Shown here piece after piece: positions 1-53,776 of a DNA stretch of 64,000 nt. The position numbers and the translations under genes are program-made. Where the stretch lies: contig CAVSGP010000004.1 in the NCBI GenBank assembly GCA_963727505.1, positions 512,001-576,000 on the forward strand. The letters run 5' to 3'. Origin of the DNA: an uncultured Trueperaceae bacterium. GTDB taxonomy: Bacteria; Deinococcota; Deinococci; Deinococcales; Trueperaceae. The notes under the pieces are model-generated. The model was given only the letters and a program-made list of their open reading frames with translations, did no database searches and was not told the DNA's origin. The stretch's first letter is position 1; each line of letters begins with the position of its first letter.

Positions 1-77
1 CCCGGCTGCTGCCGTGAGGTCCACGAATCGGTGCTGGGCCGCCCTCACAAGAACGAATACCGGCGGCGCTCAAGACG

Positions 78-101
78 TGGAGGCCACCGAAGTGGCCTCC
101 A
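78..101 (-). terminator. Stable stem-loop downstream of the 138-1613 gene
   Basis: TGGAGGCCAC-TTCG-GTGGCCTCCA on minus: 10-bp stem, C(UUCG)G loop, no strong U tract. Confidence 0.5.
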
Positions 102-137
102 ACGGATCCTCTGGGTCAACGCACCAGGTCGGCGCTC

Positions 138-1613
138 CTAGGGCGTCACCTTGAACGCATACCTGAAGTGGAAGCCCTTCGGGTGGTCCTGCCACGTCAC
201 GATGGCGGCGGTGTAGAGGAACGGTGCCTCTTGAGCCTCGCCGTAGTTCTTGTTCCGATAGAACGAGGGGTAGAGATCGATGACGTGCCACCCCGGTGCC
301 CAGGATGCGATGAGCGGCACGCTCAGGTGGCCGTCGGCGTAGGAACCGCACGCGTAGCCGACGTAGGCGTTGTCCACCACGACAGCGAAGATGTTGTCGA
401 TTTCCGTCCAACCGATCCCCTTGACCGCCAACTCGATCTCCGTGCCCTGGGGGCCCGACACGGGCGTGATCGGCTCGCCGCTCCGGGCGATGGCGAACAC
501 ACCGGTCGCAACGTCTTCTCCGTCTACGGACGCGACCAACCGATGGTCACCGCCGAGCACGTCCGGCATGGGGGCGGTCGCCGTGAAGGCTCCTCGAGCA
601 TCGGTCGTGACGGTCAGGAGGGGCTTGCTCACGTAGTCGAAGCCCTTGGCCGTGACTCCCGATCCCGTCGTATCCCGGAACGTAAGCTTCACGGTCGCGT
701 TCGCCGGCAAGCCGGAGCCGTGAACCGTCTCCCGGGTCCCGACCGTCGCTCGACTCGGATCCATCCAGACCTTCGGTCCGGGACCGGAGGGCGGCCCGGC
801 ATGCTCGGGAGGATTGGATTGCTCCGCCACGGGTGGCGGCAGCACCGCCGGCGCGTCCGTCACCGCGAACCAGAACTTCGGTTCCGGCATGAAGGCGTAC
901 GGCGACGATTTGAGATTCAGGAAGGGCTCCTCCGGGAAGATCGAGCTGCGCAGGATGATCAAGTGGCGACCGGGCGCCCCTGCGGCCGGAATCGTAATGT
1001 GAGCCGTTCCGTGGGTGGTGATGGTGGTGATCATGCCCGTGGGATGGTTGTCGTAGGTGACCTCGTACCACCCAGCGATGTCGTGGATCTGGTTCAGGCC
1101 CGTGAAGGTGAGGTGGATGTCCGACCCTACGGGGCCGCTCGCAGGTTCCATGGTGGCGCTCGCTGTGACCTGCACGCCAACCTTGTTGATGGCCGTATCA
1201 CCGTCCTTCACGTACACGTCGTGACCGCCGCCGAACCCCTCCGGCACCTCGAACCCGAAGTGGAAGGCGCCGTTCGAATCCGTGGTCACCGAACCCAGTT
1301 GCGTGGTCGTCGGCTTGAAGGTGCGACCGAAGAAGTCGTTCCGGGTATAGATGCCGTCGTCCTTCTTCAGCAGCCAGGAACCTTTGTAGCCGTCCCAAAC
1401 GATCCTGAGGACGGCTCCAGGCGCGAAGCCACTGCCGGAGAGGTTGACCCGTTGTCCCACGACGGCGTGCTCCGGATTCGCGCTCACCGTCCCCACAAAG
1501 GGCGTGGATGTCGTGCTCTGCGCGTTGACCCCACTCAGTAGCAGTAGGAGCGCGACGACCGCCGGCACCACAAGCACCAGGCGACCTCTGGAGTCGATTC
1601 TGTTTCTTGGCAT
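138..1613 (-). CDS. Secreted protein with duplicated Ig-like beta-rich modules
   Basis: 491 aa; signal peptide (LLLLSGVNA|Q); internal repeats GQRVNLSGSGFAPGA / GTRETVHGSGLPANA and PASGPVGSDIHL / PVSGPQGTEIEL. Confidence 0.7.
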   Translation of the reverse strand: MPRNRIDSRGRLVLVVPAVVALLLLLSGVNAQSTTSTPFVGTVSANPEHAVVGQRVNLSGSGFAPGAVLRIVWDGYKGSWLLKKDDGIYTRNDFFGRTFKPTTTQLGSVTTDSNGAFHFGFEVPEGFGGGHDVYVKDGDTAINKVGVQVTASATMEPASGPVGSDIHLTFTGLNQIHDIAGWYEVTYDNHPTGMITTITTHGTAHITIPAAGAPGRHLIILRSSIFPEEPFLNLKSSPYAFMPEPKFWFAVTDAPAVLPPPVAEQSNPPEHAGPPSGPGPKVWMDPSRATVGTRETVHGSGLPANATVKLTFRDTTGSGVTAKGFDYVSKPLLTVTTDARGAFTATAPMPDVLGGDHRLVASVDGEDVATGVFAIARSGEPITPVSGPQGTEIELAVKGIGWTEIDNIFAVVVDNAYVGYACGSYADGHLSVPLIASWAPGWHVIDLYPSFYRNKNYGEAQEAPFLYTAAIVTWQDHPKGFHFRYAFKVTP

Positions 1614-39435: not shown

Positions 39436-40935
39436 ATGAAGCGAGTGCTGCTCTTCCTGGTGGCTTCGACGTTGGTTGGCAGTCTGGCTTGGGCAGCGGA
39501 TCCGCCTCCGCAACAAGGCGGCACCGTGACGGTAGCCATCACGGCCGACCCTCCCGGATGGGATCCGACGGCCTCCACCTCACAGGAGATCGCGCGCGTG
39601 GTCTACCACAATGTCTACGAAGGTCTGGTGCGGCTCGACCGCAACGGCAACATCGTGCCGGCCCTGGCGAAGTCCTGGACGGTCAGCCCGGACGGCACCA
39701 CCCTCACCTTCCAGCTCCGGAGCGGCGTGACGTTCCACGACGGCACGCCCTTCACGCCCGAGGACGTGGTGAAGACCTTCGAGCGGGCCAAGGACAAGAC
39801 CTCGGGGCACACCCATCCCGAGTACTACGCCTCGATCGACACCATCGAGGTCGGGCCCGACAACACGGTCGTGTTCCATCTCAGCAAGCCCAACTCCAGC
39901 CTGCTGTTCAATCTGGCGCGGCCGGACTCGGTCATCTATCCGCCGTCGAAGGCCAGCACCCAGCGAAGCCACCCCATCGGCACCGGGCCCTTCATGTTCG
40001 CTTCCTACACGCCGGGTAGCGAGGTGGTGCTGGAGCGCAACCCCCACTACTACATCCAAGGCGAGCCCTACCTCGACAAGGTCGTGTTCAAGATCATGCC
40101 GGACCCGAATACTCGCTTCGCGGCACTGCAGGCCGGTGACATCGATATGATCGCCAGCTCGCTGCCGCCCGAGCAGTACCTGCAGATCAAGAACGGCAGC
40201 GTGGCCGGCGTCAAGGGCGCTGAGGGCACAGCCACGACCGAGATCACGCTGGCACTCAACAACGCACGGCCGCCGCTGAACGACAAGCGCGTGCGCGAGG
40301 CCATCACCATGGCCATCGACAAGAAGGCGATCGTTCAGGGGGCCATGTTCGGTCTCGGCACCGTGATCAGCACGCACATGACGCCCGCGGAGCCGTACTA
40401 CATCAACCCCGACCCCTACCCCTACGACCCGGCGAAGGCCAAGCAATTGCTCGCCGAAGCCGGTTATCCGAACGGCTTCAAGATCAAGCTCGAGCTGCCC
40501 CAGCCCTACCCGATCGAGCGGCGTACGGGTCAGGTCATCGCTCAGCAGCTCAAGCAGGTCGGCATCGACGCGCAGGTGTCGGTCGTGGAGTGGACCACCT
40601 GGCTGCAGCGCATCTTCCTGGGTGGCGACTACGACATGACCATCATCGGCCACTCCGAACCGCGCGACATCAGCATCTACGGCAATCCCAACTACTACTT
40701 CCACTACGACAACCCGGTTGTGCAGAATCTGCTCAAGCAGGCCGAGGCCGCGACCTCGCCGCAAGTGCAGACCGCCGACTACCAGGAGGTCGGGAAGACC
40801 ATCGCTCAGGATGCGGTGAACGTGTGGGTCTTCAGTCCACCGTACCTGGTGGCCACGCGCAACGACATCTACGGCTTCTGGACCAACCAACCCACGCCGG
40901 CGATCGACATGACCCGCGTCTACCGCGCCCCCTAG
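39436..40935 (+). CDS. ABC substrate-binding protein, family 5 (DppA/OppA-like)
   Basis: AGGAGG RBS, signal peptide, YEGLV, PALAKSW, FHDGTP, PIGTGPF. Confidence 0.92.
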   Translation: MKRVLLFLVASTLVGSLAWAADPPPQQGGTVTVAITADPPGWDPTASTSQEIARVVYHNVYEGLVRLDRNGNIVPALAKSWTVSPDGTTLTFQLRSGVTFHDGTPFTPEDVVKTFERAKDKTSGHTHPEYYASIDTIEVGPDNTVVFHLSKPNSSLLFNLARPDSVIYPPSKASTQRSHPIGTGPFMFASYTPGSEVVLERNPHYYIQGEPYLDKVVFKIMPDPNTRFAALQAGDIDMIASSLPPEQYLQIKNGSVAGVKGAEGTATTEITLALNNARPPLNDKRVREAITMAIDKKAIVQGAMFGLGTVISTHMTPAEPYYINPDPYPYDPAKAKQLLAEAGYPNGFKIKLELPQPYPIERRTGQVIAQQLKQVGIDAQVSVVEWTTWLQRIFLGGDYDMTIIGHSEPRDISIYGNPNYYFHYDNPVVQNLLKQAEAATSPQVQTADYQEVGKTIAQDAVNVWVFSPPYLVATRNDIYGFWTNQPTPAIDMTRVYRAP

Positions 40936-43653: not shown

Positions 43654-46129
43654 CTACGACGTCTCGGTGCGCCAGCGCTTACGTATACGCCGGATGCGCG
43701 CGTTCGCCAACGGCCGGCGAGGATCGTTCGGGGGTAGGTGCCGCCGCGTTTCCTCCCATAGCTCCAGGTCGTCCCCCTGCTGATTGGCCAGGTCGATCAT
43801 GGCATCGGCGTCGCCCGACGCAAGCACCGCCTGCCGGAGACTCTCCTCGAGGTGCTCGCGCAGCTCGACGACGGTCGGCGCCTCGGACTCCGGCAGGAGG
43901 GGGCCGCGATAGAGCTCCAAGGCCGCTTGCACCTTGCCTTCGTGCAACAACTCGAGCACCTTCACGAAGTCGGCCTCGTACGCCTCGGCGATGTGATACG
44001 GAAGCGGTTCGATCGGGATCACCTTGCGCGCACGCGAGATCGTTGCCTTCAGCGTGCTCTTGTTCGCGCGGTCCCCATAGAGCGCCAACGCGAGTTGTTC
44101 GCCCCGGATCCCCTCACGGTTTGCAGCCAGTACCGCGATCAACTCCGCGAACCGCAGGCTGAGCGTCGTCTCACCGTCATTGCCCCACAACGACCGCTTG
44201 CCCAGGAGCCGAATCTTCAGCTTGGGCTCGTCGTTCCTGAACAGCGCCTTCAACTGCACGACTTCGGGCCCGTCACCCCCGAGGAGTAACCAACCCGAGT
44301 CCCCAAGGTCCTTTAGAAAGCGAGCGTTACGTTCCATGAGGGCGTGGGCTTCGTCGGGGCGCCCCTCACGCAGGAAGTGGCAACCAAGATGGATCAACGC
44401 CTGAGCTGCGTAGGCGCCGAAGGGCTTCGAGATGAATTCGTCTGCAGCCTTCTGAAGGAGCGCTTCACCGTCACTCCTGCCCGTTGCCGCTAGAGCACAG
44501 CCAAGTGCCAGTCTGGCCACTCGTTCGTGAGCCGGGGACACCTCTCGCGACATCTCCATCGCCTCCGCAGCGACCTCGACCGCTCTACGCCGCATCCCGA
44601 GAACACCGTAGATTCGAACGAGATCGTTTGCAACCGTCGGAAGCTGAGATCGTGACGCATTCGCTGCAACCAGTTCGTAATAGTGCTTTGCCTCCTCCAC
44701 GTCACCAGCAACCAACGCGAAGTCGCCAAGCGTAGACAGAATCCCCTCTGTCGTCGGTGTTCCGACAAGAGACTTTCGGAATCTGAACTGTCGCGAGGGC
44801 CTGCTCTGCGCTGGCCACAGCGCCGGTCAGCAAGCGAGTGTATGCGGCGAAGTTGACAAGCGTGAGGCGAAGAAGCTCCTCTCTGAGACCGACCGTGTGA
44901 AACTGCCTCAACGCCCATCCTGCCCAGTGCTGCGCACGGCCATAATCTCCAGCTGACAAGTGAGCCAGCGCCATGTCACCTGCTACAGAAACCACGAGCC
45001 TTGGTCGACCAGCACGCTCGCCGTACTCCATGGCTTCTCTGAGAGCCTCAATTGCCGCAGGAATCTGACCGTCGAGAGTGAGTAGGAAACCGAGTGCCGC
45101 CGCGGTTACTGCATTGGGGCGTGCATGGTAGGCCCGCTCAGCCTCAGCGATGGAGCCCGAACGGACATCGATCGTTGCACGAAGCGCCCTAACATTTGGG
45201 GCCTCATGACGTTCCAGGTAGCGATCGACCAATGGCATTAGTGACCGCCAGCGGTTGACTGTTACCGCGGAACTGAACTGCCAGTAAACGACCTTCTCGT
45301 CACGCAAGAGCCAGCTTGGTAGCCCCGATATCGTCCTCCAAAACCGTTCGAACTGGCCAGTGTCAAAGAGGATGTTGCCCGCCTCTTCGACCATCTCTGG
45401 CACTCTCGTTGGAGCATGCCTTGCCGCCAATTCAAAGGCCTCCACCCACTTGCCATTCCTAATTAGCGCATCTACGCCCACACCCGCGTCCCTGGCCGAG
45501 AGTGCACGCACGGCAAGACCCAACTCCTTGGGATCTTCGGGGTCTTCTGGCCAAGCCAGCCCGAGAGCTCGTTCGACCAGAGCAATTGCCCCTCCGGTCT
45601 TCCAAACTGCTGAAACAATAATGCTCTCTTCACACTCGTCCCCGTAGAGATCAAGAGCCTCTTCCCGTGTCAACGCCAGATCGGAAGTCCCAACGGACTT
45701 CCATCCATCGCGCGATTCAAACTCTCCTGAATCGCAGGCGGCCTGCTGAACTAGGAGGTTCGGCGCCCGAACCACGGATGCAATCTCGCTCGCCCATTGC
45801 GGACACTTGTGTGCTTGCGTCAATACGAACGTAATTGGCTCAAGGGAAGGCAGATACGACTCAAGTACGCTCAGGCCATAGGAACCATCTGCACCGGTGC
45901 CGAACAATGGTGCGCCCAAGCCAAACCTGACCGCCTCCGATAACGCATCACCGACGGCAACATCGTCAGAACAATCGACCGCCTCTAGATCCATCCAGAT
46001 TAGTGGCTGTTCCGGCTGGCGTAGGCTTGCAATGACCCTGTTCAATCCCCAATCTTCGTCTGCCAAGACGGCTACAGGCGAGCCTGGCTCCGAGATCATC
46101 GCGCGGACACGGTCGATCCAAGCGTTCAT
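43654..46129 (-). CDS. Degenerate MalT/STAND-like + TPR + C-terminal winged-HTH regulator, one +1 frameshift near 44775
   Basis: ORFs 44702-46141 and 43654-44715 join if one base of TTT 44774-44776 is removed (QIPKSLVGTPTTEGILSTLGDF); GGAGG before ATG 46129; C-terminal LKIRLLG...LYRGPLLP. Confidence 0.75.
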
Positions 46130-46210
46130 GACCTCCTCCATGCCCAGTCTTCCAAGGAAGCCGAATCCGAATGGCGAAGCTCAACTGCTGCCGACTTATG
46201 CTTGGCTGAC

Positions 46211-47460: not shown

Positions 47461-48549
47461 TCAAGTGCGGTGATAGACAAGAAGTCCTTCAGCGGCGTTC
47501 GCTTCGTGCGTACCAAAGAAGGACGGGCTTCCAGCGCATTCGATCTTTCCGAGGAAATAGAGTCGCTCAAACTCGGCAACAAGCTCGGGATCAAACTGTG
47601 TCCTTGAGCCGTTGCGGACATATTGCAGTGCCTGCCTGGCGGGCATCGGGCTTCGATATGGGCGTTCACTAGTGAGCGCCTCAAATACGTCAACAATCGC
47701 AATTACGCGCGCAAGACGTGGTATCTCCTCCCCTTTGAAGCCAAGCGGGTACCCTAGGCCATCCCACCGTTCGTGGTGAGCACGAACGACATCTGCGATA
47801 GGACGAAATGTGACGGACACTGATGCAAGTAAGTCTGCCCCATATGAGGGATGCCGGCGAATCTCAGCGAACTCGTCCTCGGTCAGTCGGCCACTCTTCA
47901 GAAGGATATATTCGGGAACCGCTATCTTGCCCAGATCATGCAGTCTCGCTGCCCAATAGAGCACGGTCGTCTCTCTTGACGAAATGCCAAGCGCGTGTCC
48001 CATAACGAGCGCATTGCGTGCAACGCGCTCGCAGTGCCCTTGGGTGTGGTGGTCCCGAACCTCAACAGTGTTTGCAAGACTTGCAAGAACTCGTTGATAT
48101 CCTTCGAATTCTGCAACGCCACTTGCGCTCCTTCCCTGATGGCTTGGAGGCACATGTGCACGGGATACTAGCACTGTGGACATGCCTGCGAAGGTAGCGA
48201 ATACGGCACCCTGAAAAGCCCACCACCCAGTACCAGCGAAGGAATCCTGAATCTTCAATAACTGGTGCACTGCGATGGGAGAAACTAGCGCAATTGCGAC
48301 AACACTCGTGGCAAGGGCGCCAAGGACGCCGCCCCAGGCCGCGCCTACCAAAATCGGAAACAACATCGTCTCCGCCATCGCGGCATAACCAAACTCGATC
48401 CCCACGGCCCTGGTTGCAACCAGGAGGATGGCCGGCGCAAGGACGGCGAATGCTATGGCAGCTGAACGAATGCTTGGAAAGCCCGGCTCACGCGACCTCG
48501 TGCCTTGCAGGCGTAGATGCGAAGCCAATCGCCAGAGCGCGCCCCTCAT
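47461..48549 (-). CDS. Membrane-anchored HD-GYP phosphodiesterase
   Basis: About 4 N-terminal TM helices; LHDLGK, HHERWDGLGYP, DVFEALTSERPYR; ATG 48549 preferred over 48657. Confidence 0.88.
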   Translation of the reverse strand: MRGALWRLASHLRLQGTRSREPGFPSIRSAAIAFAVLAPAILLVATRAVGIEFGYAAMAETMLFPILVGAAWGGVLGALATSVVAIALVSPIAVHQLLKIQDSFAGTGWWAFQGAVFATFAGMSTVLVSRAHVPPSHQGRSASGVAEFEGYQRVLASLANTVEVRDHHTQGHCERVARNALVMGHALGISSRETTVLYWAARLHDLGKIAVPEYILLKSGRLTEDEFAEIRRHPSYGADLLASVSVTFRPIADVVRAHHERWDGLGYPLGFKGEEIPRLARVIAIVDVFEALTSERPYRSPMPARQALQYVRNGSRTQFDPELVAEFERLYFLGKIECAGSPSFFGTHEANAAEGLLVYHRT

Positions 48550-48662
48550 TGACTGTCCACCCCTCTGGGTACGCAAACACAGCGTGGTGAGGCGATAATC
48601 TGAGTTGAGCGCGACAAAGAAAAGCCCACGACATACGCCTCCTCTCGGCGTAGTCATAGACT

Positions 48663-48700
48663 AAAAGGCCGGCGCTTATGGACCACATAAACGCCGGCCT
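48663..48700 (-). terminator. Intrinsic terminator of the peptide transcript
   Basis: Minus strand AGGCCGGCGTTTATG-TGGTC-CATAAGCGCCGGCCT followed by TTT. Confidence 0.7.
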
Positions 48701-48779
48701 AGACAGACAAACTCTCAGTCATCTTGTGTCACTACATTATGACTCCGATGTAGCGATACCTAACGCCAGAAGACCGCCT

Positions 48780-48881
48780 TCAGCGTTGCGAGAAGTGCGA
48801 ACCTGCAGAGACAATTGCGGGCAAGCTGGCGACGAGTGCAAACACGATAGCCATGAAGATGCGCTTCCCTGTATTCTTCAT
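48780..48881 (-). CDS. 33-aa secreted propeptide MKNTGKRIFMAIVFALVASLPAIVSA|GSHFSQR (candidate signalling peptide)
   Basis: Translated by hand (below the ORF-track cutoff); GGGAG 4 nt before ATG; basic n-region, hydrophobic h-region, V-S-A cleavage site; own promoter and terminator. Confidence 0.8.
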   Translation of the reverse strand: MKNTGKRIFMAIVFALVASLPAIVSAGSHFSQR

Positions 48882-49127
48882 ATTTCTCCCATCCTCCCGA
48901 AACCCGTTTGCCGGGTAACGACATCTCTTCATCCACGGTCTCCCATACCGAGGATGCGCTTCTCAGGTCTCCCAACCTTGAAGCATTCTTCTGAGTCCAT
49001 CGGACTCAACGACTTGGAGCTGTTGGGGTTCTGTGGTCCAGACTCTCCCTGACTCAGCTCCCATCTCTTCCAACACCCGGGAAATCCCGGTAACCGATCA
49101 GGCCTCCCAACCAAATCGATTGGCGTT

Positions 49128-49156
49128 AGTGTACACACGACAGTGGCCTTCGTCAA
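49128..49156 (-). promoter_or_regulatory. Sigma70-type promoter for the peptide gene
   Basis: TTGACG (49156-49151), 17-nt spacer, TACACT (49133-49128). Confidence 0.75.
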
Positions 49157-49333
49157 GGGAAATCTAGCACTTCACGTGAACGTGTGTTTGCGTATATATG
49201 CTGTCCCCAACAGTGCGGGGCACTTCTGACTGTGGCGTACTTCGTCTAGTGGCCTCGGGGCCGTGTAATAGAATCTAGTGCACAGGAACTGTGCTGGGTA
49301 GGAGGATACCGGCAAATACCGCCGCAGCGATCA

Positions 49334-51005
49334 ATGACGAAAGAAGTCGAGCAGCTCGTTCGCGAAAAGTATCCTGGCGTCCAACTCGATAGTGACGTCC
49401 AAGCATGGGCGTTCCTTGAGGAGTTCGACAAGGGTGTAGAAGCGTACTCCAAGAAGGTCAACCCTACGCCCGCAGATGATCGATGGGTAGGCGTATGTCT
49501 ATTTCAGTTGGTGCGTGACTTGGAGGCGCTGGAAGCACTCTACCGGGCGTTGAACCGGGGTGAGCCGGCTGCTCGCGTAAACATCGCCCATGTGCTCAGA
49601 TTTGTGGAGCGCGCAGAAGACGCATCCGAAGAACTGAGCAAGGTGAAGCCCGAGCAATTCTCGTCTTCATATGACCAAGTCCTGTATTTCAGGGTGTTGA
49701 GCATACACGAGGAAAACAATGGCAACCTAAGGGAGGCACTTAGGTCTGCCGAGGAAGCGTGGCGCCGAATTCAGGGCATACCGGAGTTTGGGCTTCTTGC
49801 CCCCCCCATCCTTGCCCAGCTTGCGACACTTCACGGCAGAATTGGTAGGTCGCAACGAGCGCTCTGGTTCCTCGAACGGGGACTACAACTTACGTCTGGT
49901 GCCGAGCTTCGAAAGCTCCAGCTAAGGCGCGCTTACGTCCTGATCAGTCTCGGCCGTTACCAGGAAGCACAATCTGAACTCGAAGCCCTGGACTTGGCGC
50001 ACGCTCCAGATATCTTCCAGCCGGAACGTCATTGGCTTCTTGGAGAAGTCGCAAGGTCCAGGGGAAACCTCTCAACGGCAATCCACGAATACGAGCAGGC
50101 AATTGAATTGTCGGTTCAATTGCAGATGGGCTACGAGGAGTTCCTCAGGCCGAATCCCGCTCATGGCCATCCTTGGAAACCAGCGGTGACTTCAGTGCGG
50201 CCGCCGAGCATGCTGCACGTGCCCAGACGCTTATCTCCGACAAGTCTGACAGGCTGGAGTTCCGATTTCGGGAAGTCCTCCTGCTTTACTGGCAAAGCAT
50301 ACACACGAGTGAGCACGCCATCGATAGAACTCGATGCGCTGATTGATGAGCTTGGGGCAATGGGCCTCTTGAAGGAGCAGGGCCACGTCCAACTCCACAA
50401 AGCAGAGATCCTCCGTGTCGCCGGAGGCGCCTTCGAAGTTGAGCTTGATAAGCTTCAGGCACTAAGCGTTACACTTCAGAATCCGGCGTTCCTAGCGCCT
50501 GAATGGTCGCTACTGCATGCGCTTGAGGAAGTTGCCAGGCGAACTCATCCGCGCATTGCCGGTCGAGCGCATAGCGCGCTTCGGATTGCTACGTTGGGCC
50601 AAGAGCTCACTTGAACTAGATTCGAGGCCAGTCAACATCCCACTCCGCAAGGGCGTCGAAGTTCTTGCGTACTTCCTCGAAAACAAGGCCGTCACCCTCA
50701 AACAACTCCTCGCCGAGGTCTTCCCCGACGACAAACCCCGGAGCGCAAAGTCGTACTTCCACCAGTTCCGCCACCAGCTTCGAGAGAATGTGGAGGGGCT
50801 CGAGATCGAATACGACGGAGAGTCCAAGATGTACCGACTCAAGAGCGAGATCGACATCGTTTGGGACGTGTCGGAACTCCGCGCCGGCCGGATCATGGGT
50901 AAGACCGGGCTCTTCTTGCCGAGTTCTGGCAACGACTGGGCGCTCGCCGTCGATCGATCCTTGGATCCCTCCCGGGAGGCGGTCGGAGTCCTCGAGGTGG
51001 TCTGA
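49334..51005 (+). CDS. TPR + C-terminal winged-HTH (SARP/OmpR-like) regulator, four +1 frameshifts
   Basis: TPR-like helices (LISLGRYQEAQSELE, GNLSTAIHEYEQAIEL); C-terminal LRKGVEVLAYFLE...LLAEVFPD...YFHQFRHQLRE in ORF 50517-51005; about 555 aa when repaired. Confidence 0.75.
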
Positions 51006-51049
51006 AACAGCACCGCAGGCGGGCCACCGCCTGTGCTATTCTTGTTTCG

Positions 51050-51114
51050 ACGGAAGAGATGGTGGTTGGGAGATCCCGGAGCGGCGGTTGGGAGCCACAA
51101 GCTCCGGGTTTTTC
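51050..51114 (+). ncRNA. Candidate G-rich sRNA (or 3' UTR element of the TPR gene)
   Basis: TG-c-TATTCT at 51034-51042; CGGAAGAGATGG and two GGTTGGGAG; stem CCCGGAGC/GCTCCGGG followed by TTTTT. Confidence 0.45.
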
Positions 51115-51180
51115 TGTGCCGTTGGGCGTTCGCTTCCAGAACCGCGAGCCGATCCCATGCCGACGGCCCGCCTGTCGGGG

Positions 51181-51214
51181 CTGTAAGAATCCTGTAAGAA
51201 TGCCTGGCTATACT
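51181..51214 (+). promoter_or_regulatory. Promoter with tandem direct repeats upstream of the -10 box
   Basis: CTGTAAGAAT at 51181 and 51192 (11-bp period), TATACT at 51209-51214. Confidence 0.65.
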
Positions 51215-51219
51215 CAAGT

Positions 51220-51307
51220 CGTGGACCTGAGGTAACTCTCCCAGTACCTCTTCCCATCTCTTCCGAACAACGGGCTCCGCGCCTCCCACGCGGAGTCCAA
51301 CTTTTTT
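51220..51307 (+). ncRNA. Candidate C/U-rich sRNA
   Basis: Follows the -10 box; CTCTCCCAGTACCTCTTCCCATCTCTTCCG; hairpin GGGCTCCGCG-CCTCCCA-CGCGGAGTCC then AAC-TTTTTT. Confidence 0.55.
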
Positions 51308-51538
51308 GGGCCCCTGCGATACAGGGGCGCGATGCACCGGGCCGTAGCATTACAGCCAGCATCGTGTGCTGACCCGTGCTCCGCGCGGAATATGGCGGGA
51401 ATATGGCGGTTCGGTACGGGCTGTGCAGCGACCCTCAACGACCGCGCTGTCGTACCGCATTTGCTTGCGGGGGACCCCGAAAGTGTGTTAAAAAGGGTAG
51501 TTGCCAGCTTACCCAAATCCGAGGAGGAAGCCCATTTC

Positions 51539-53776
<2,238 letters not shown>

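Follow-up and report, generated by a model that had tools for sequence, protein, structure and literature searches.

Among the systems described so far, those closest to the locus considered here are the RRNPP(A) systems of Bacillota and their phages (Rap-Phr, NprR-NprX, PlcR-PapR, PrgX, Rgg-SHP and AimR-AimP). There, a small pre-peptide carrying a signal peptide gives rise to a C-terminal peptide of 5 to 8 residues and is encoded beside a cytoplasmic receptor made of tetratricopeptide repeats (TPR). Signalling by a re-imported peptide through such a receptor is regarded as characteristic of Firmicutes and their phages, and the large surveys of RRNPP systems are, in the sections consulted, framed around Gram-positive bacteria (PMC10075063, PMC9765709). 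The present locus lies in a stretch of 64,000 nucleotides, analysed as a whole and hereafter called the window, from an uncultured Trueperaceae bacterium, a diderm member of the Deinococcota. It consists of a 33-codon gene for a small protein with a predicted signal peptide and of a divergent gene for a regulator in which a TPR part precedes a C-terminal winged helix of the SARP type. An initial annotation of the window, made from its letters alone, had taken this pair for a system analogous to RRNPP in Deinococcota. The present analysis leans towards the same reading, i.e., a two-gene peptide signalling module working like the Firmicutes systems, with somewhat more confidence than doubt. It is supported by the pairing of the two genes, the Rap/NprR-like TPR fold predicted for the regulator, its C-terminal winged helix of the SARP type, the tandem repeats found in some relatives of the peptide and the SARP-type repeats found in front of some peptide genes.

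Like RRNPP(A) systems, the module associates a small gene for a pre-peptide with a TPR superhelix that, in models, resembles peptide-bound Rap and NprR, and its peptide combines conserved putative anchors with variable positions that would set specificity. Some relatives of the module contain tandem mature units, as do some Phr-type propeptides in the systems covered by the consulted part of one report (PMC11343458). Unlike those systems, the predicted heptapeptide directly follows the signal peptidase site, with no pro-region, and the host is diderm. The DNA-binding domain is a C-terminal winged helix of the SARP/OmpR type, whereas RRNPP(A) receptors have an N-terminal Xre-type helix-turn-helix (HTH) or the Rap helix bundle, and no significant sequence similarity of the module to the RRNPP families was found. 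The module is regarded as an analogue of these systems and not as a member, because its DNA-binding domain differs in type and lies at the opposite end, and because no significant RRNPP sequence match was obtained.

Domain III of MalT and other sensor TPR-like domains of STAND regulators are a further point of comparison. MalT responds to maltotriose and combines an ATPase domain with an output domain of the LuxR type, neither of which is present in the module's regulator. This regulator shares with the SARP activators (AfsR, EmbR and the small Streptomyces SARPs) the winged-helix fold and, in distant homologues, the BTAD domain. The order is reversed, the TPR sensor coming first and the SARP part last, and the ATPase domain of the large SARPs is absent; BTAD is reduced to a stub in the Trueperaceae clade, and the partner gene encodes a predicted secreted peptide and is not an antibiotic gene cluster. 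In some distant relatives of the module, the promoters of peptide genes appear to have 11-bp direct repeats ending 8 nt 5' of the -10 element, like the SARP sites presented in the excerpted part of PMC11301090. In the same phylum, the CheY-SARP response regulators of Deinococcus (COG3947, Deide_19260) provide another case of a SARP module located C-terminally to a signal-input domain (PMC3564903, consulted in part). Unlike the present regulator, they have a phospho-receiver as input instead of TPR, and the part of that source consulted describes no partner peptide. A term search in the accessible text of the RRNPP surveys PMC10075063 and PMC9765709 gave no mention of Deinococcota, and no such peptide-receptor pair described in this phylum came out of a full-text literature search that had subscription journals outside its scope.

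The small gene and its linkage to the regulator gene

The initial annotation described a 33-codon open reading frame (ORF) consisting almost entirely of a signal peptide. Its position is confirmed, and selection is visible at the codon level when 42 distinct coding sequences of the small gene, 40 of them with 33 codons, are compared. In these 40 versions, synonymous codons are fully sampled at invariant residues (four at Gly5, four at Ala26, five at Arg33) and all three stop codons are found, always at position 34. As synonymous codons vary beneath invariant residues and the length is fixed, the small ORF is under purifying selection at the protein level. Judged on these sequences, it is a real gene, neither a chance frame nor merely an RNA signal. 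No Rfam family matched the region 48500-49500 at E up to 1.

In the same 40 versions, a basic N-region precedes a hydrophobic core of about 17 residues, residues 10-25 being hydrophobic and variable. Pro occupies position 21 (-6) in 31/40, while position 24 (-3) is V, A, G or S and position 26 (-1) is Ala in 40/40; Gly follows at position 27 (+1) in 38/40. Further on, Ser is found at position 31 (35/40), Gln at position 32 (32/40) and Arg at position 33, the last one (40/40). A -3/-1 pattern with an Ala-Gly junction is the established grammar of a signal peptidase I site, so that a heptapeptide G-x-x-x-S-Q-R would remain after cleavage. The signal-peptide call rests on a crude in-house rule combined with the conserved -3/-1 pattern.

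Positions 28-30 of the tail are hypervariable, no charged residue ever being seen there in the 40 versions, and 39 distinct tails occur in 61 distinct receptor-peptide pairs. Residue-level comparisons of peptide and receptor are comparisons of rates over these 61 pairs, which are strongly confounded by phylogeny. At 70-80% receptor identity, 58% of positions differ in tail 28-30, 35% in the hydrophobic core and 26% in the receptor itself, but 4% at tail positions 5-7 and 0% at the N-terminus. The tail GVHFSQR recurs beside receptors that are just 60% identical.

Relatives of the small ORF, searched by tblastn and then with a hidden Markov model built from 12 sequences, came from whole genomes, a species-genome collection and metagenomes. 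In these relatives, the small ORF lies on the opposite strand, approximately 325-490 bp 5' of the regulator gene. A divergent small ORF is present in 94 of 102 orthologue loci, a locus (numbered L below) being counted when it covered the regulator N-terminus together with 650 bp or more of DNA upstream, with duplicates between collections retained. Three of the eight misses (L017, L046 and L048) carry a variant ORF. Furthermore, among 37 genomes of the same family, the ORF model matched 15 of the 17 with an orthologue of the regulator (E < 1e-50) and none of the 20 without. Flanking genes vary between orthologue loci; an HD-GYP gene after the small ORF and rpsA after the receptor gene are found in many of them, far from all.

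Two other families of the order, one of them that of Deinococcus, have homologues of the regulator with about 650 aa and just 25-35% identity, often as several copies per genome. The partner was sought at 21 such distant loci as a divergent small signal-peptide ORF starting at most 200 bp from the receptor start. A crude predictor found one at 14 of them, and ORF lists read by eye add L020, L022, L071, L074, L078 and L079, which brings the count to 20; at L080, neither the predictor nor the ORF list gave any small ORF. Among 1621 long ORFs from the genome of the window, 20 (1.2%) satisfy the same rule, a background drawn from a different genome than the distant test loci. The initial annotation had asked whether a small secreted ORF accompanies homologues of the regulator; the answer is positive in both the orthologue and the distant sets.

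The distant small ORFs share no homology with that of Trueperaceae; the parts predicted to be exported have 10-45 residues, and many are Gly-rich. Several contain putative mature units in tandem, namely AASSGTFPP three times (L082), DPGGGTGGGT twice (L085) and SGATAFGGG twice (L088). In the same way, within a Trueperaceae subgroup, L017/L046 have two copies of AGLEHR where the related L048 has two of SGAERR, which indicates that the two copies changed in step. Pheromone propeptides duplicated in tandem are described for RRNPPA systems in the consulted portion of PMC11343458. All other neighbours of the distant loci are mutually unrelated (thioesterase, PAS, HNH, peroxidase, S41 peptidase, ferrochelatase, LptF/G and others), so that the conserved unit is the two-gene pair.

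Among the partner peptides of L083, L084, L087 and L022, one subgroup ends with P-P-x-x-C-S-x-C and another with D-Y-D-C-C. Such Cys-containing ends suggest peptides that are disulfide-bonded or otherwise modified; the short flanks of these four loci showed no modification enzyme.

Two pairs belong to cultured strains. On plasmid P2 of D. gobiensis I-0 (L147), a 44-codon signal-peptide ORF (1262-1396, minus strand) lies 105 bp 5' of DGO_RS18440; on a D. taeanensis plasmid (L148), a 47-codon signal-peptide ORF with a strong ribosome-binding site (RBS) (1218-1361, minus strand) lies 5' of LAJ19_RS14990. Neither ORF is in the gene table used, which is incomplete by its own description. Many Deinococcus copies are on megaplasmids, and the nine plasmid records matched are all from Deinococcus. 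At E <= 1e-30, the receptor family has 563 representatives when clustered at 50% identity, and full-length matches (about 630-655 aa) make up most of the best 150. As regards a link with phages like that of arbitrium, no match to the Deinococcus-type receptor was obtained in 50,697 phage records. A word-indexed search with broad alignment gave few relatives beyond large SARP-ATPase-TPR proteins. ESM Atlas clusters with BTAD and TPR in Chloroflexota, Pseudomonadota and Actinomycetota, in which the domain order is not visible, are a lead only.

Taken over Trueperaceae, megaplasmids and chromosomes of Deinococcus and a third family, these pairs may represent a phylum-wide quorum-sensing family in Deinococcota, made of a TPR-SARP regulator and a divergent secreted peptide, independent of RRNPP or very distant from it, with diversification of pherotypes at three peptide positions, multi-copy propeptides and autoinduction through SARP repeats. 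This wider proposal is considered slightly more probable than its contrary.

Fold and domain order of the regulator

The initial annotation assigned to the divergent gene a TPR protein with a winged HTH and placed the DNA-binding domain at the C-terminus instead of the N-terminus; Pfam matches and structural models agree with it on both counts. The regulator matches Pfam TPR families (TPR_2, 29.9 bits, over its cut-off). Its AlphaFold model, computed from 43 sequences (pLDDT 90.3), is an all-helical array up to about residue 400, introduced by short helices (residues 1-40) and followed by a beta/alpha domain. Inspection of the N-terminus reveals no signal peptide. The model is consistent with a cytoplasmic receptor having a TPR superhelix of the Rap/NprR/PlcR/AimR type.

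In Foldseek, the best TM-scores of the TPR part were for peptide-bound RapJ (4gyo, TM 0.74 on the target) and for the phi3T Rap with its pheromone (TM 0.68). A search independent of Foldseek, made against 48,161 chains, ranked MalT domain III first (22.5), then phi105 Rap with its peptide (21.7) and NprR-NprX (21.0), the next ranks being APPBP2 (20.2) and an APC subunit (20.1). The nearest folds of the modelled TPR part are thus sensor-type bacterial TPR superhelices, by a margin that is small for a repeat protein. The regulator has neither an N-terminal HTH or Rap bundle nor the sequence features that would place it among RRNPP receptors.

The last 150 residues, modelled separately (pLDDT 93.5), best match the SARP module of AfsR in a transcription complex (8hvr_I, E 1.8e-4, TM 0.68 on the query), then EmbR and DNA-binding domains of the OmpR/PhoB type. 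The C-terminal part appears as an OmpR-type winged helix followed by BTAD, of which the window's clade keeps the first part only. BTAD is recognized in the distant homologues L071 and L072 (39.8 and 27.7 bits, Pfam cut-off 22.1), and about 240 residues follow the start of the domain in distant homologues vs about 150 in the Trueperaceae clade, where BTAD is cut to a stub of about 40 residues. The SARP module is not N-terminal, as it occupies about residues 405-555 of 555. Deinococcus members are named 'SARP family' or 'BTAD domain-containing' regulators by NCBI. A weak Pfam NNH6 match overlies the winged helix. In searches of the window's own genome, the TPR part turned up no paralogue, and the C-terminal part gave a single weak match (E 0.003).

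Control of the peptide gene

The promoter, RBS and terminator attributed to the small ORF by the initial annotation were all found again. The promoter TTGACG-17-TACACT is the sole sigma-70-like match in 48550-51250, a result that by itself is not significant since shuffled sequences are expected to give 0.8 match. Its core (TTGA..-N16-18-TA...T, about 170-300 nt 5' of the ATG) is retained in 33 of 42 distinct orthologue intergenic regions. This promoter implies a leader of about 240 nt.

The DNA 5' of the small ORF at 18 distant loci, taken as the intergenic region and the first 20 nt of the receptor gene, has a different organization. Self-matches of 5-mers peak at a shift of 11 (45 vs 2.2 +/- 1.9 in shuffles; nine of the 18 loci contribute), with harmonics at shifts 22 (15) and 33 (19). 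In 7 of 22 loci (L072, L077, L081, L086, L079, L022 and L147), a count that is biased upward because the -10 candidate was picked so as to maximise repeat matches, heptamers of the TCAGCnn type end 8 nt 5' of a -10-like TAGGCT or TAACTT. For example, read in the sense of the small gene, L081 has the run TCAGCAT/TCAGCAT/TCAGCAC and L077 the run TCAGTGC/TCAGTAA/TCAGAAC/TCAGCAG. The -10-like hexamer of distant peptide genes lies 26-30 nt 5' of the ATG, and promoters of the Deinococcus type have no -35 element. SARP sites, as outlined in the part of PMC11301090 consulted, are direct repeats one helical turn (11 bp) apart that end 8 nt 5' of the -10 element. Repeats of this style in peptide promoters point to direct activation of the peptide gene by the receptor in the distant relatives, i.e., to an autoinduction loop. 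On this sequence evidence, the receptor probably switches on its own signal in Deinococcus-type relatives.

In the window's clade, the leader is rich in GGGAG, with 4.3 occurrences per leader region on the sense strand vs 0.17 on the other strand and 0.85 in shuffled sequences. Hairpin tips hold the two best-conserved copies (GGTTGGGAG, 49112..49104 and 48977..48969), and compensatory changes affect 7 of the 11 pairs that RNAalifold predicts in leader hairpins. GGTTGGGAG occurs 24 times in the 3.26-Mb genome, and its only two clusters there flank the receptor gene, each pointing away from it. The second copy of the downstream cluster overlaps a terminator-like hairpin (51091-51105), and the downstream copy is kept only in close relatives. 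CsrA, a candidate reader of GGGAG hairpins, was not found in the genome, which is 97% complete. Peptide-gene control in the window's clade may differ from that of the Deinococcus type.

Proposed mechanism, alternatives and genomic context

The following sequence of events is proposed for the module. The small gene, whose coding nature is established above, would make a 33-residue pre-peptide. Sec would export it, and cleavage by signal peptidase I behind Ala-26 would release the heptapeptide G-x-x-x-S-Q-R (GSHFSQR in the window). This heptapeptide would accumulate outside and re-enter through an oligopeptide ABC importer. The adjoining cytoplasmic regulator would then bind the peptide in its TPR superhelix groove, and this binding would alter the activity of the C-terminal SARP-type DNA-binding module. 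Gly1 and Ser5-Gln6-Arg7 would act as anchor residues, while the fast-changing uncharged positions 2-4 would set specificity and define pherotypes. As for uptake, 17 matches to the family-5 peptide-binding proteins of ABC importers are present in the genome, which indicates import capacity only.

Several observations weigh against such a module. The small ORF was not found at the orthologue loci L015 (the same record as L064), L018, L065 and L143. In the genome of L015 (G036), it is on a different contig from the receptor, a separation that could reflect either a rearrangement or an assembly break. At the level of sequence, a profile search of the PDB gave for the regulator weak generic TPR matches only (best E 0.069) and no Rap, NprR, PlcR or AimR at E up to 1; the sole match to a Pfam family of RRNPP proteins is AimR PF22871 (E 0.057, 13 bits for a cut-off of 26.7). 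The peptide gene of the window's clade has a good -35/-10 promoter and no 11-bp repeats, so that a regulatory link from the receptor to the peptide gene is visible, as a sequence pattern, only in distant relatives. The origin of the background used for the distant loci and the upward bias in the heptamer count have to be added to this list.

The small ORF of G036 lies at 2781-2879 of contig C112 (L089); its tail is GLSTTQR and there is no receptor homologue within 3 kb.

The adjacency of the two genes is also equally compatible with a regulator located beside one of its targets. The TPR-SARP protein would then sense another signal, and the small peptide would have a job of its own, as a membrane-active, antimicrobial or envelope factor. 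In line with this, the promoter repeats reveal control of the peptide gene and not sensing of the peptide, the sugar-binding domain III of MalT matches the TPR part as well as Rap and NprR do, and some distant peptides have 15-40 residues, are Gly-rich or terminate in C-x-x-C (L083, L084, L087), features that would also fit secreted effectors. This explanation is nevertheless considered unlikely. A product of seven residues is too small for most effector roles, and no conserved immunity, modification or export genes are found nearby. Furthermore, short tandem units evolving in concert and a hypervariable core flanked by fixed anchors are what is typically seen in ligands that match a receptor, and the pair persists while all other neighbours change.

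Another alternative starts from the other end of the small protein. If it stayed uncleaved in the inner membrane, its cytoplasmic MKNTGKRIF could bind the TPR part and retain or free the regulator in the manner of an anti-activator, the outer tail being a sensor or being trimmed. TPR domains commonly bind short linear motifs, and these nine N-terminal residues are almost invariant over synonymous codon changes in the 40 versions, which is the main unexplained fact in favour of this alternative and a further point against a signalling heptapeptide. They differ at 0-1% of positions across 50-90% receptor identity and remain invariant down to about 40%, which exceeds the constraint usual for the N-region of a signal peptide and hints at a cytoplasmic-side function of the uncleaved protein. 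The motif occurs once in the whole genome and nowhere outside the small ORF. However, the -3/-1 rule, the Pro at -6 and the invariant Ala-Gly junction are left unexplained if there is no cleavage, the distant small ORFs begin with diverse, unremarkable N-termini, and the repeated units in their exported part point to the tail as the product. A membrane-anchored partner is thus held to be improbable.

That the pair is a relic with a receptor pseudogene, as the four +1 shifts within about 460 bp of the window could suggest, is hardly credible, given that these bases are missing from the contigs of four runs in two studies and that the 555-codon frame is open.

In the window, these shifts split the regulator gene into four frame pieces. 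Contigs of four public DNA runs, from two soil/sediment metagenome studies, were compared with the window over 48600-51100; one of the runs may be the window's source sample, and both studies agree. The contigs of all four runs lack exactly these four bases and are otherwise identical or near-identical to the window, with eight shared base differences between 49900 and 50302. One run (X1) shows zero differences over the flanks 48600-49809 and 50652-51079. When the four bases are omitted, the frame is open over 555 codons and its product is 89% identical, gapless, to a 555-residue homologue (P0001), orthologues being of about 555 aa. As independent metagenome contigs omit all four bases, the gene is most likely intact in nature, and its treatment as a pseudogene was rejected. 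The differences in 49900-50610 look like a local error of assembly, consensus or polishing, perhaps with collapsed strains. The 'repaired' TPR protein mentioned in the initial annotation hence needs no repair, the frameshifts appearing to be assembly errors. Short frames are also seen in orthologues from other metagenome-assembled genomes (L014/L049, 452 aa; L059, 408 aa; L061, 403 aa; L056, 180 aa), and these may be artefacts of the same kind.

The features of the module and its neighbours are listed in Table 1. The HD_5 gene located after the small gene is a candidate target of the regulation, through which the module would be connected to the turnover of cyclic-di-GMP. The 479-residue protein encoded 3 kb upstream was matched by neither receptor piece in searches of the window's own genome.

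Table 1. Positions of the module's components and of neighbouring genes in the 64,000-nucleotide window; those of protein parts are residue numbers
Feature	Position	Strand	Remarks
Small pre-peptide gene	48780..48881	-	33 codons; ATG at 48881, stop codon 48782..48780; encodes MKNTGKRIFMAIVFALVASLPAIVSAGSHFSQR
Putative signal peptide of small protein	residues 1-26		predicted from sequence
Putative mature heptapeptide	residues 27-33		GSHFSQR; predicted from sequence
RBS of small gene	48886..48899	-	GGAGGATGGGAG, just 5' of the ATG; near-invariant block across orthologues
Promoter-like TTGACG-17-TACACT of small gene	49128..49156	-	sigma-70-like scan
Long leader of small gene	48882..49121	-	(GG)TTGGGAG at 49112..49104, 49073..49067 and 48977..48969; GGGAGACC at ~48946..48937
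Intrinsic-terminator-like hairpin 3' of small gene	48666..48700	-	15-pair stem, 9 G-C pairs, tail TTTAGTCTAT
TPR-SARP regulator gene	49334..51005	+	divergent from small gene; 555 codons without four spurious single bases
Stretch with four extra single bases	50147..50609	+	at 50147, 50183, 50324 and 50609; from alignment to orthologue DNA
TPR superhelix of regulator	residues ~40-390		from model
SARP-type winged helix and BTAD stub of regulator	residues ~405-555		from model
Two further GGTTGGGAG copies	51064-51072, 51086-51094	+	22 nt apart, 3' of regulator gene
Family-5 (Opp/Dpp-type) solute-binding protein gene	39649-40656	+	9 kb upstream of the module; one of the genome's 17
Gene for a 479-residue protein	44702-46141	-	weak TPR_12 match; C-terminus looks abrupt
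Gene for a membrane-associated HD-GYP-type (HD_5) protein	47461-48657	-	after the small gene, in the window and in many, not all, orthologue loci
Ribosomal protein S1 gene	51332-53776	+	after the receptor gene in many loci; open frame of 814 codons with a long acidic Ala/Glu-rich C-terminal extension; N-terminal stretch may be non-coding

If the proposed phylum-wide family is real, it would be the first such system outside Bacillota. Annotation that is blind to small ORFs hides half of such systems. Pairs are carried by the cultured strain D. gobiensis I-0 and by D. taeanensis, and their predicted peptides are short enough to be synthesised. A conserved and diversifying family of peptides and receptors in Deinococcota would show that this signalling logic works behind an outer membrane and that another DNA-binding chassis is possible, and that it may have arisen more than once.

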